Source: Leucoraja erinacea (taxonomy: Eukaryota). From it: DNA of 64,000 nt. Of this stretch, positions 23,972 through 44,034 are shown in pieces; the stretch's first letter is position 1; each line of letters starts with the position of its first letter. The translations under genes and the position numbers were made by a program. Location of the stretch: the NCBI RefSeq assembly GCF_028641065.1, contig NC_073401.1, forward strand, positions 24,304,001-24,368,000. The letters run 5' to 3'. Below the pieces are notes generated by a model. It ran no database searches. It saw only the letters and a program-made list of their open reading frames with translations, and was not told the DNA's origin.

Positions 23972-25322
23972 CTATTTACATTTCTTCATACCCTTGTATT
24001 TTGAATTGTACGTGGGAAATGCTTTGGCGAAGCAAGCGGCCGCATTGCTATCACATTCACAGACAAACTTCGCACATTTACCATTTTTACCTGAAAAGAA
24101 ACAGAAAACGCATTATTTAGAACATATTGCCCATGGATTGTGAAGGAAATAATTTTCCAAGCCTCTCCTGGACCATACTCACTGTCGCAAATCACGGTCT
24201 TTTTTGAACAGGTGTACTCGTAGGGCATAACTTTGGGGTCCTTAATAATTTTGCAGCCGATTTTATTAGCCTTATCATAACATTTGTCGTGTGTCTGACA
24301 GCACCTGCAAGAACATGGGTCATGTCAGGTAGGAAACACTGCAACCATAATCAACACAACACTTTGACTGATGGTTTGCAGCAGCACAAACATCATATGC
24401 AGCAAAATAGTCCCGAGGTGATCAGAGCGGAACCAGCCTGAGCAGGTTTGAGATCCACATTGGACCTGTGGGCGGTGGGGTGGGAGACTCATTGTGGGAT
24501 GGGAATACTTGCAACCAGGAGCTGCCTGAAGTCAGGCAGGAACAGTGAGGGCGGCACGGTGGCGCAGCGGTAGAGTTGCTGCCGGACAGCGCCAGTTACC
24601 CGGGTTCAATCCAGACCTCGGGTCATATCTGTGTGGAGTTTGCACGTTCTCCCTGTGACCCAATGAGTTTCCTCAGGCGCTAAACTCAGGTGCTCCAGTT
24701 TCCCCCCATACTGTGACTAGTGTGAACGATGGTTGGCATGGACCCGATGGGCCAAATGGCCTGTTTCCATACTGTATCTGTAAACTAGAATGGCTCCAAA
24801 CCCTAGGCGACAATAAGTCAGTGGCACCCAAGAATATTTCATAAAACATACATTTCACAGCTCATGGGAAAATCTATTGGGATATTCTGAATGTGAAGAA
24901 TGAACGGCCTGCAGTGAAGGTTCAATCCTGCAGCTTCAGTAAATGGAGACGAACAATTGTCTGGGCCAGAGCCAGCCCTGGCCTGCAATGTGTGGGACCC
25001 GGCTCCAGACAGACCTCTGCATCGACCCACCTGTCCAGATCATCCACCGGTTTCCCCTGTCCACCAAGCCCGCAGTAACATCCGTAGTTGTTGAACGTTA
25101 AAAGTGGGACGCTCCCTGGGATGGCACACTTAATCAACTTGTTGAACTGCAAGAGGCTTCTGGGCTGAAGGGACTCAGTGTCACCGCCGGCTACACCAGG
25201 GGGGAGGCAACCTGACAGAAACAAACACGTTAGAACATCAAGCGAGCAACATCCAAGGCAAGGCAGAGGCAGGGGAGAGACACGTTACCTGGGAGCAGAA
25301 GTACCAGAAGTAGCCCCAACAT
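23972..25322 (-). CDS. PLA2G1B: Group IB secretory phospholipase A2, copy 1; exons 25322-25289, 25211-25031, 24304-24183, 24090-23972; 151 aa prepro-protein
   Basis: All GT-AG junctions in frame. [151 protein letters not shown]. Ca loop, His48/Asp49, Asp99, 14 mature Cys including Cys11, propeptide ending in Arg. Confidence 0.95.
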
Positions 25323-25376
25323 CTTAGTTTGCTGTGTCTAGTCCTGGAATCAATACTCTGAATGCTCAGCCCATGC

Positions 25377-25490
25377 TTTTTATAGTCAGCCTCGACCAAC
25401 GTCCAGGTTCAGACCCCTGGATCACGTCATGGCATCTGTTAATGTGGATAAGATAAAGGCTAAACTTCCGTTGATACAGCTGGAGTCAAA
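25377..25490 (-). promoter_or_regulatory. PLA2 copy 1 proximal promoter
   Basis: TATAAAAA at 25384-25377; same E-box, GATA and CRE-like motifs as copy 3. Confidence 0.65.
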
Positions 25491-42469: not shown

Positions 42470-42577
42470 TTTGACTCCAGCTGTATCAACGGACGTTTAG
42501 CCTTTATCTTATCCACATTAACAGATGCCATGACGTGATCCAGGGGTCTGAACCTGGACGTTGGTTGACTATAAAAA
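42470..42577 (+). promoter_or_regulatory. PLA2 copy 3 proximal promoter
   Basis: TATAAAA 42570-42576 (~60 bp before the ATG), CRE-like TGACGTGA 42531-42538, E-boxes CAGCTG 42478-42483 and CAGATG 42522-42527, paired reverse GATA motifs 42504-42514. Confidence 0.65.
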
Positions 42578-42631
42578 GCATGGGCTGAGCATTCAGAGTA
42601 TTGATTCCAGGATTAGACACAGCAAACTAAG

Positions 42632-44034
42632 ATGTTGGGGCTACTTCTGGTACTTCTGCTCCCAGGTAACGTGTCTCTCCCCCGCCTCAGCCTTGCCTTG
42701 GATGTTGCTCGCTTGATGTTCTAACGTGTTTGTTTCTGTCAGGTTGCCTCCCCCCTGGTGTAGCCGGCGGTGACACTGAGTCCCTTCAGCCCAGAGACCT
42801 CTGGCGGTTCAACAAGTTGATTAAGTGCGCCATACCAGGGAGCATCCCACTTTTAACCTTCAACAACTACGGATGTTACTGCGGGCTTGGTGGACAGGGG
42901 GAACCGGTGGATGATCTGGACAGGTGGGTCAATGCAGAGGTCTGTCTGGAGCCGGGTCACACACATTGCAGGCCAGGGCTGGCTCTGGCCCAGACAATAG
43001 TTTGTCTACATTTACTGAAGCTGCAGGATTGAACCTTCACTGCAGGCCGTTCATTCTTCACATTCAGAATATCCCAATAGATTTTCCCATGAGCTGTGAA
43101 ATGTATGTTTTATGAAATATTCTTGGGTGCCACTGACTTATTGTCGCCTAGGGTTTGGAGCCATTCTAGTTTACAGATACAGTATGGAAACAGGCCATTT
43201 GGCCCATCGGGTCCATGCCAACCATCGTTCACACTAGTCACAGTCCCGGCACACAAGGGGTAATTTACAGAGCACAATTAACCTACAAACCCACACGTCT
43301 TTGGGGTATGGGGGGGGGAAACTGGAGCACCTGAGTTTAGCACCTGAGGAAACTCATTGGGTCACAGGGAGAACGTGCAAACTCCACACAGATATGACCC
43401 GAGGTCTGGATTGAACCCGGGTAACAGCAACTCTACCGCTGCGCCACCGTGCCGCCCTCACTGTTCCTGCCTGACTTCAGGCAGCTCCTGGTTGCAAGCA
43501 TTCCCATCCCACAATGAGTCTCCCACCCCACCGCCCACAGGTCCAATGTGGATCTCAAACCTGCTCAGGCTGGTTCCGCTCTGATCACCTCGGGACTATT
43601 TTGCTGCATATGATGTTTGTGCTGCTGCAAACCATCAGTCAAAGTGTTGTGTTGATCATGGTTGCAGTGTTTCCTACCTGACATGACCCATGTTTTTGCA
43701 GGTGCTGTCAGACACACGACAAATGTTATGGCGCGGCTTCGAAAATGGGCTGCACATTTCTCAAGAACCCCAAAGCTGTGGGCTACAAGTTCACCTGTTC
43801 AGAAAAGACCGTCACTTGCGACAGTGAGTATGGTCCAGGAGATGCTTGGAAAATTCTTTTCTTCACAATCCATGGGCAATATGTTCTAAATAATGCGTTT
43901 TCTGTTTCTTTTCAGGTAAAAATAATAAATGTGCGAAGTTTGTCTGTGAATGTGATAGCAATGCGGCCGCTTGCTTCGCCAAAGCATTTCCCACGTACAA
44001 TCCAAAATACAAGGGTATGAAGAAATGTAAATAG
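42632..44034 (+). CDS. PLA2G1B: Group IB secretory phospholipase A2, copy 3 (inverted); exons 42632-42665, 42743-42923, 43702-43823, 43916-44034; 151 aa
   Basis: Same exon sizes. Mature [122 protein letters not shown]; intact frame. Confidence 0.95.

Follow-up and report, generated by a model that had tools for sequence, protein, structure and literature searches.

A tandem cluster of diversifying, group IB-derived phospholipase A2 genes in the skate Leucoraja erinacea

Introduction

Accelerated evolution, in which the mature exons of a gene diverge faster than its introns and its signal peptide, is a pattern that comes from the literature on snake phospholipase A2 (PLA2). A first-pass annotation noticed this pattern in PLA2 genes of the skate Leucoraja erinacea; to our knowledge, no venom system or venom gland is known in skates. 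The question raised by the locus is what produces the contrast and what the genes may do. The DNA analyzed, called the window below, is a stretch of 64,000 nucleotides (G000:C25:24304001-24368000, C25 being contig NC_073401.1), and it contains three intact four-exon PLA2 genes, c1, c2 and c3. The contrast between exons and introns has two causes: positive selection, which is supported for the mature proteins, and gene conversion, which shuffles non-coding sites among the copies. The cluster offers a control from a non-venomous animal for a signature that is commonly taken as the mark of a toxin gene, and it allows one to measure how conversion keeps introns alike.

The genes of the cluster

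Every intron of c1, c2 and c3 begins with GT and ends with AG, and the coding sequence of each gene is 456 nt long. The genes and their parts are located in the window as follows.

25322-23972, minus strand: c1, intact gene
25289..25322, minus strand: c1 exon 1, encoding the signal peptide (34 coding nt)
25031..25211, minus strand: c1 exon 2, propeptide with terminal Arg, N-terminal helix and calcium loop (protein P0008)
24183..24304, minus strand: c1 exon 3, with His48/Asp49, the beta wing and the pancreatic loop in its remodelled form
23972..24090, minus strand: c1 exon 4, coding part, Asp99, C-terminus and stop
35889-34538, minus strand: c2, intact gene
35856..35889, minus strand: c2 exon 1
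35598..35778, minus strand: c2 exon 2 (protein P0009)
34749..34870, minus strand: c2 exon 3
34538..34656, minus strand: c2 exon 4, coding part
42632-44034, plus strand: c3, intact gene, inverted relative to c1 and c2
42455..42631, plus strand: c3 proximal promoter and 5' leader, with E-box, GATA-like, CRE-like (cyclic AMP response element) and TATA sequences, all motif matches only
42632..42665, plus strand: c3 exon 1
42743..42923, plus strand: c3 exon 2, 181 nt, with the c7-type acceptor 21 nt further in
43702..43823, plus strand: c3 exon 3, 122 nt (128 nt in c7), both flanking introns spliced in RNA-type contigs
43916..44034, plus strand: c3 exon 4, coding part, from exon-intron structure and RNA-type contigs

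The first-pass annotation described a three-copy cluster. The three genes are intact and correctly placed, but the number is an undercount. The cluster is comprised of seven genes over C25:24.328-24.393 Mb, six derived copies and one ordinary PLA2G1B gene, c7. Beyond the right end of the window are found c4 (L031, intact), c5 (L032), c6 (L032, intact) and c7 (L033). Gene c5 is truncated, stopping 99 nt into exon 3 with exon 4 absent, and the other five derived copies are intact. No further copies were found in the fetched flanks (200 kb). Common to all seven genes are the promoter with the 5' leader, exon 1 and the first part of intron 1, a stretch with 91-94% identity to c7. In exon 2 the match between c7 and the other copies is 75%, below the level of the promoter and exon 1. 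Database proteins identical to c1-c7 exist and are annotated 'phospholipase A2-like'; 'pseudexin-like' and similar database names are assigned automatically from the best match. In literature searches, limited mostly to listings of matches and largely to papers outside subscription journals, no description of the expansion or of its evolution turned up.

Divergence of exons and introns

Between c1 and c3 the region encoding the signal peptide and propeptide (prepro) has no differences (0/87), intron 1 has 2/77 and intron 3 has 3/92, while exon 3 has 22/122 and the mature region 34 nt differences. A codon recount gave 22 amino-acid changes, 15 of them in exon 3, and four synonymous codons. Copies c1 and c2 differ by 12 nt, with eight amino-acid changes and one synonymous codon. 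The 14 cysteines, Tyr28/Gly30/Gly32, His48, Asp49 and Asp99 are invariant in c1-c3. All these counts agree with those made by hand in the first-pass annotation. Intron 2, which it had skipped, follows the same pattern (9/712 between c1 and c3).

The five intact derived copies form ten pairs, which are not independent. The non-synonymous difference exceeds the intron difference in 10/10 (Fisher p 0.007 to 3e-19), the prepro region has 0/87 differences in 10/10, and the introns differ by 1.0-3.0%. The pattern described for snake PLA2 is thus present, with mature exons evolving faster than introns and signal peptide. Because gene conversion acts on the non-coding DNA, however, slow introns and fast exons are by themselves no signal of selection at this cluster. 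The introns are not an undisturbed neutral clock, their sites being shuffled among the copies.

Positive selection on the mature proteins

Codon likelihood models, implemented in our own code, were applied to the five intact copies (122 codons). With a single ratio of non-synonymous to synonymous rates (dN/dS, or omega), omega was 2.11 (p 0.012 against 1). The comparison of M1a with M2a gave a likelihood-ratio test statistic (LRT) of 36.7, or 30.8 on the second-best tree, with 27% of the sites at omega ~10; M7/M8 and M8a/M8 gave 36.6. When double and triple hits were allowed, the LRT was 19.0 (p 7.5e-5), and with per-exon trees as well as multiple hits it was 13.5 (p 0.001). In null simulations with strong recombination (six recombining blocks) none of 24 reached 19.0, the maximum being 11.2. 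Across the models the selected class sits at omega 5-10. The proposal that the mature protein is under diversifying selection is thus supported by the site models when the copies outside the window are included.

The expectation that dN/dS would exceed 1 with more sequences was borne out for a class of sites. Pairwise dN/dS ranges from 1.09 to 2.91 and is significantly above 1 in just 1/10 pairs. For the three pairs within the window it is 1.35, 1.09 (c1-c3) and 1.68, none significantly above 1.

The naive posterior exceeds 0.9 at 17 mature sites: 3, 6, 17, 19, 20, 31, 56, 57, 63, 65, 68, 70, 87, 108, 113, 117 and 119. Many of them fall in segments that would form the membrane-binding face in pancreatic PLA2: the N-terminal helix, residues 19-20, residue 31, the 63-70 loop and a C-terminal stretch.

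Gene conversion and the status of c1 and c2

The 1137 non-coding columns of c1-c6 contain 14 informative sites, which define 13 splits, and 51 of the 91 site pairs are incompatible (21/45 after removal of CpG sites). None of 300 clonal simulations reached 51 incompatible pairs. A neighbour-compatibility test of recombination on all 44 informative sites weighs on the other side, being not significant (p 0.076). In the exons, c1 has short patches in common with c5 against c2.

The exon lineages cross genera. Gene c4 is joined in the tree by one Amblyraja copy (99/96) and c6 by three such copies (96/93). In exon 3, c3 has four residue differences from an Amblyraja copy, compared with 10 or more from every intact Leucoraja copy. 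Even the conservative c7 and its Amblyraja orthologue differ at 11/124 residues, though the introns of the cluster differ by just 1.0-3.0%. For these reasons we infer that the non-coding DNA was homogenized after the two genera had separated. One exon-4 column is fixed differently in the two, in 5/5 Leucoraja and 7/7 Amblyraja copies. The heterozygosity of L. erinacea is given as 1.6%, near the intron differences of the cluster (PMC10115646). The far flanks were tried as an older neutral clock and rejected: they are mostly 95-98.6% identical, with a few repeat-rich pieces at 89-94%, and so are close to the introns.

Conversion had been named beforehand as a possible explanation of the entire contrast. 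It does act on the non-coding DNA, and it accounts for part of the contrast only. A history without adaptive diversification, in which old, loosely constrained exon lineages and homogenization of introns by conversion alone generate the contrast, is in our judgement very improbable. It can draw on the conversion itself, on the dN/dS of 1.09 for c1-c3, and on a synonymous difference that by pathway counting exceeds the intron difference in 7/10 pairs. Moreover, 107 of 316 differing codon comparisons involve two or three changes, which can mislead codon models. However, the class with omega above 1 survives the multiple-hit models, the per-exon models and the null simulations. When the synonymous difference in mature exons is taken from same-residue codons only, it is 1.5-7.8% against 1.0-2.9% in the introns, an excess that is significant in 1/10 pairs. 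Conversion free of selection would not spare the mature exons and yet leave the prepro region identical in every pair, and five of the six derived copies stay intact.

Copies c1 and c2 lie in a tandem repeat.

19829..30159, no strand: tandem unit (10.4 kb), first copy, holds c1, bounded by pieces of long interspersed nuclear elements (LINEs)
30353..40726, no strand: tandem unit, second copy, holds c2, 1.2% substitutions relative to the first

It is possible, though we lean against it, that c1 and c2 represent a single gene whose two alleles were set side by side during assembly. The repeated units differ at 107/8820 positions (1.2%), below the heterozygosity of 1.6% (PMC10115646), and both ends of the unit are within LINE pieces. 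Against this, there is no gap at the junction, the only run of N in the window being at 51406-51505, and unequal crossing-over between LINE copies yields the same structure. Such an artefact would be compatible with any reading of the function of the genes; the derived copies would fall from six to five, and c3-c7 would be unaffected.

Family membership

Group IB enzymes are defined by 14 cysteines including the Cys11-Cys77 pair, with neither Cys50 nor a C-terminal extension. The copies have this arrangement, and c6 carries a 15th cysteine. Four exons, a signal peptide and a short propeptide ending in Arg, of the trypsin type in all copies, likewise agree with group IB. The calcium loop and His48/Asp49/Tyr52/Tyr73/Asp99 are invariant columns in a 35-row alignment (PF00068, E 6.7e-37). 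Structure prediction gave the expected fold, three long helices and a beta wing, with a mean pLDDT (predicted local distance difference test) of 78.5 and low values at the remodelled loop. Among solved structures the best matches are to pancreatic enzymes of mammals (E 1e-45), presumably those of pig, human and cattle, followed by snake enzymes (E 7e-36 and weaker).

The full-length pancreatic loop followed by Pro-Tyr69 is present in c7 and absent from the derived copies. Their exon 3 is 122 nt long, compared with 128 nt in c7, one residue having been lost on either side of Cys61. Tyr69 is lost in the derived copies, and c1-c4 have Lys in its place. Because of the shortened loop and the replaced Tyr69, the derived copies are best classified, on their sequences, as group IB-derived variants and not as typical members. 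Their descent from PLA2G1B is indicated by the adjoining c7, by the same promoter and exon 1, and by best matches to PLA2G1B; the 48-row tree described below held only group I rows and is no test of descent from other PLA2 groups. The 15-nt deletion in the pancreatic loop of exon 3 that marks group IA is not present, exon 3 being only 6 nt shorter.

In charge the derived copies depart from c7, which is acidic (isoelectric point (pI) 4.6, net charge -7). Copies c1-c4 have a pI of 8.9-9.1, a net charge of +9 to +11 and 19-22 Lys and Arg residues; c6 has a pI of 7.9 and a net charge of +2. A high positive charge combined with Lys69, as in group IIA, is thus found in c1-c4 and not in c6. Group IIA itself is defined by Cys50 and a C-terminal extension, with no Cys11-Cys77 pair and no propeptide. 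The skate copies lack the first two, keep the pair and the propeptide, and appear to descend from group IB.

The skate copies agree with vertebrate pancreatic PLA2G1B in having four exons, a signal peptide, a propeptide with Arg at its end, 14 cysteines with the 11-77 pair, the calcium loop and the catalytic residues. They differ in being multi-copy and mostly basic, in the six bases missing from exon 3, in the loss of Tyr69 and in the class of sites with omega above 1. Two residues are inserted near the C-terminus in Leucoraja and Amblyraja, and the prepro part is seven residues longer in skate models.

Distribution of the derived type

Protein searches (the last covering the best 120 of 684 matches) and cluster look-ups gave derived-type models from several genera. 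Among the matches listed there are at least eight in Amblyraja, two in Rhinoraja, five in Hemitrygon and two in Pristis, at least seven sequences in Hypanus (two of them fused models), at least six in Mobula hypostoma and at least five in M. birostris (two of them isoforms). Models known from the last cluster look-up only were placed by cluster and motif, outside the tree. In the 48-row tree a 99/98 branch separates the 30 derived rows from all others. On the other side are c7, its skate and ray counterparts, seven shark models, coelacanth, sturgeon and three amniotes. The tree left out the intron-retaining or fused batoid models P0002, P0013 and P0089, the truncated P0010, the first domains of three fused shark models, the gene at C25:21.58 Mb and the other bony-vertebrate matches.

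The clade is marked by the shortened loop and the loss of Tyr69. From sequence comparison the family appears to be a batoid expansion of PLA2G1B, a single clade in skates, stingrays, devil rays and sawfish. None of the seven shark models retrieved by word-based searches is of the derived type, which is moderate evidence for its absence from sharks. Evolution in the derived clade is also faster than in the ancestral type: 16/124 residues separate c7 from its Rhinoraja orthologue, and 35-46 of ~120 separate the derived copies from their best Rhinoraja match.

Comparison with the venom cluster of elapid snakes

The layout resembles the elapid venom group I locus, where tandem expansion of PLA2G1B left one conservative, non-venom copy beside copies with a changed exon-3 loop (bioRxiv 10.64898/2026.06.23.733212); there too, mature exons outpace introns. 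The origins are nevertheless independent. Exon 3 suffered two single-codon losses in the skate and a 15-nt deletion in elapids, and the neighbour of the skate cluster is a sugar-transporter gene, THOC5 of the snake locus being 8 Mb away on the same chromosome. On C25, THOC5 is at 16.0 Mb and a SIRT4-like exon at 23.17 Mb, neither adjacent to the cluster; an NF2-type C-terminus was not found on C25.

The 'toxin-like' character suggested by the first-pass annotation received no support. That the genes encode venom components as in elapid snakes, perhaps as a relic of or precursor to the venom of the stingray spine, is hardly credible to us, although the layout is similar and stingrays carry the clade. 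Besides stingrays, the expansion includes skates, sawfish and devil rays; skates, sawfish and the giant manta, which are not known to have a venom apparatus, have 2-8 derived models each among the matches listed. The solved structures closest to the skate proteins are pancreatic, with the snake enzymes behind, and minimal PLA2 activity is reported for stingray venom (PMC8781517). Nothing was found in support of a venom role. Neither a PLA2 transcript from stingray tissue nor a 'toxin-like' label in a database need be a sign of venom.

Proposed function

We propose, with about even confidence, that the derived copies are secreted, membrane-attacking defence enzymes of the gut or another mucosa, activated by trypsin. 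A single PLA2G1B gene would have duplicated before the ray lineages split, and the acidic copy (c7) would have remained conservative. The derived copies would be released as zymogens, cut by trypsin, and would then hydrolyze anionic membranes of bacteria or parasites. As the targets change, new residues would be favoured near the face that binds membranes. Short patches would be reshuffled, and the copy number altered, through conversion and through unequal crossing-over at the LINE-rich flanks, and selection would keep the differing exon patches from homogenization.

In the mouse PLA2g1B is a single conserved gene, whereas the skate set is expanded and diversifying. The mouse epithelial enzyme, of the same gene family, has a known role in gut defence and kills intestinal helminths (PMC5644720). 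Basic group IIA, with 23 basic residues in the human enzyme, Lys69 and intact catalytic residues like c1-c4, kills Gram-positive bacteria (PMC7583969), and intestinal pla2g1b of medaka is reported to rise upon infection (PMC9680080). The likeness to c7 hints at shared expression, probably in gut or pancreas, because promoter and exon 1 are 91-94% identical. More tentatively, a group IIA-like battery of cationic, Lys69-bearing antimicrobial or anti-parasite enzymes may have arisen independently in skates and rays from a pancreatic phospholipase. If so, the battery would date back far enough for skates, stingrays and sawfish to have it in common, and its arms race would be continuing today; a non-venom vertebrate cluster would repeat the layout of elapid venom PLA2; and conserved introns with fast exons could arise from conversion and selection on host-defence targets. 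The cluster names a candidate innate defence family of rays and skates that can be compared with its own ancestral copy.

Several results weigh against a defence role. The charge is not uniform, being +2 in c6, -3 in one Amblyraja copy, -4 in one Hemitrygon copy and +1 to +4 in several Mobula copies. The pairwise dN/dS values given above are mostly not significant, the site tests use five sequences and our own code, and the link between selected sites and the membrane face is drawn by residue number. Expression is low in the runs examined, which indicate presence only. In one run, guessed to be RNA, the exon 2-3 junction and the exon 3-4 junction are each spanned by a single contig, with a depth of ~4.3. 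A small number of 3' reads came from two single-cell runs, where the 3' depth reaches 7.5 and 2.9. A bulk run gave no exon 2-4 reads in the ~5% read, and most reads of four RNA-type runs fell on a repeat in intron 2.

Digestive diversification would explain the same selection by diet, the pancreatic enzymes being tuned to prey phospholipids or to the bile-alcohol micelles of bottom-feeding rays. We regard it as unlikely. The trypsin-type propeptide retained in all copies and the promoter in common with c7 agree with it, as does the shark pla2g1b, a pancreatic digestive transcript (PMC8923501). However, continuous turnover with a class at omega 5-10 would fit a moving target better than a diet, and the clade is also expanded in Mobula, which feeds on plankton. 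The pancreatic enzyme purified from a stingray eluted from an anion exchanger (PMC3050761). As a weak lead, its 21 N-terminal residues, compared by hand, match the gene at C25:21.58 Mb at 14/21, c7 at 11/21 and c3 at 9/21 (PMC3050761).

Defence at the body surface or in reproduction, by secretion into skin mucus, egg jelly or uterine fluid, would share the charge and selection evidence with the gut or mucosal reading, and we hold it to be quite unlikely. Stingray spine tissue has several Asp49 PLA2 transcripts that the authors consider non-venom and maybe epidermal (PMC8781517), but among the matches listed for one species in the same study, those of group I type are at ~1 transcript per million (TPM) or less. 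The trypsin-type propeptide would also point to the gut.

Splice acceptor and an unusual transcript

At window 42743-42763, and at the equivalent positions of c1, c2 and c4-c6, the derived skate copies apparently use an acceptor 21 nt upstream of that of c7, so that the prepro part becomes seven residues longer. The alternative that the 87-nt prepro region is mis-spliced was dropped; one RNA-type contig contains the extra 21 nt. Run X20 gave, on window 42742-43823, a spliced contig with a c5-like exon 3 and an exon 2 and N-terminus unlike those of all seven assembled genes. It may represent a further allele or copy, another species, or a low-depth error.

Other features of the window and other PLA2 loci

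Sugar-transporter exons (PF00083) at window ~2000-2150 and 10050-10301, minus strand, belong to the left neighbour of the cluster, which we take to be SLC2A11-like. A search of the genome for sugar transporters, in which 9 of 152 candidates were scored, did not recover these exons. An intron of the transporter gene contains a 1.3-kb tandem duplication (window 4204-6909, 95%). Two 4-kb copies at window 47304-55442, of 87.8% identity, flank the sole gap (51406-51505); they are possibly uncollapsed haplotypes or an older duplication. Further to the right is the following feature.

58740..61752, opposite orientations: two remnants, without genes, of the tandem unit's upstream region, 93-98% identical

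Elsewhere in the genome, the second group I PLA2 gene at C25:21.58 Mb (L071) has Asn in place of Tyr28, as do shark models in which the gene is joined with an adjacent PLA2. Intronless PLA2 genes were found at two places, C18:35.60 Mb (L051) and C34:5.51 Mb (L052); both have Cys50 and a furin-type RR site, and the open frame is basic in one case and acidic in the other. Another small PLA2 tandem cluster, presumably group X-like, is at C20:7.91-7.97 Mb (L063-L065), and two unplaced PLA2 loci are on C393 and C1717. Outside fishes, several distinct PLA2G1B-like clusters in Peromyscus (P0108, P0117, P0132, P0164) hint at a rodent expansion.

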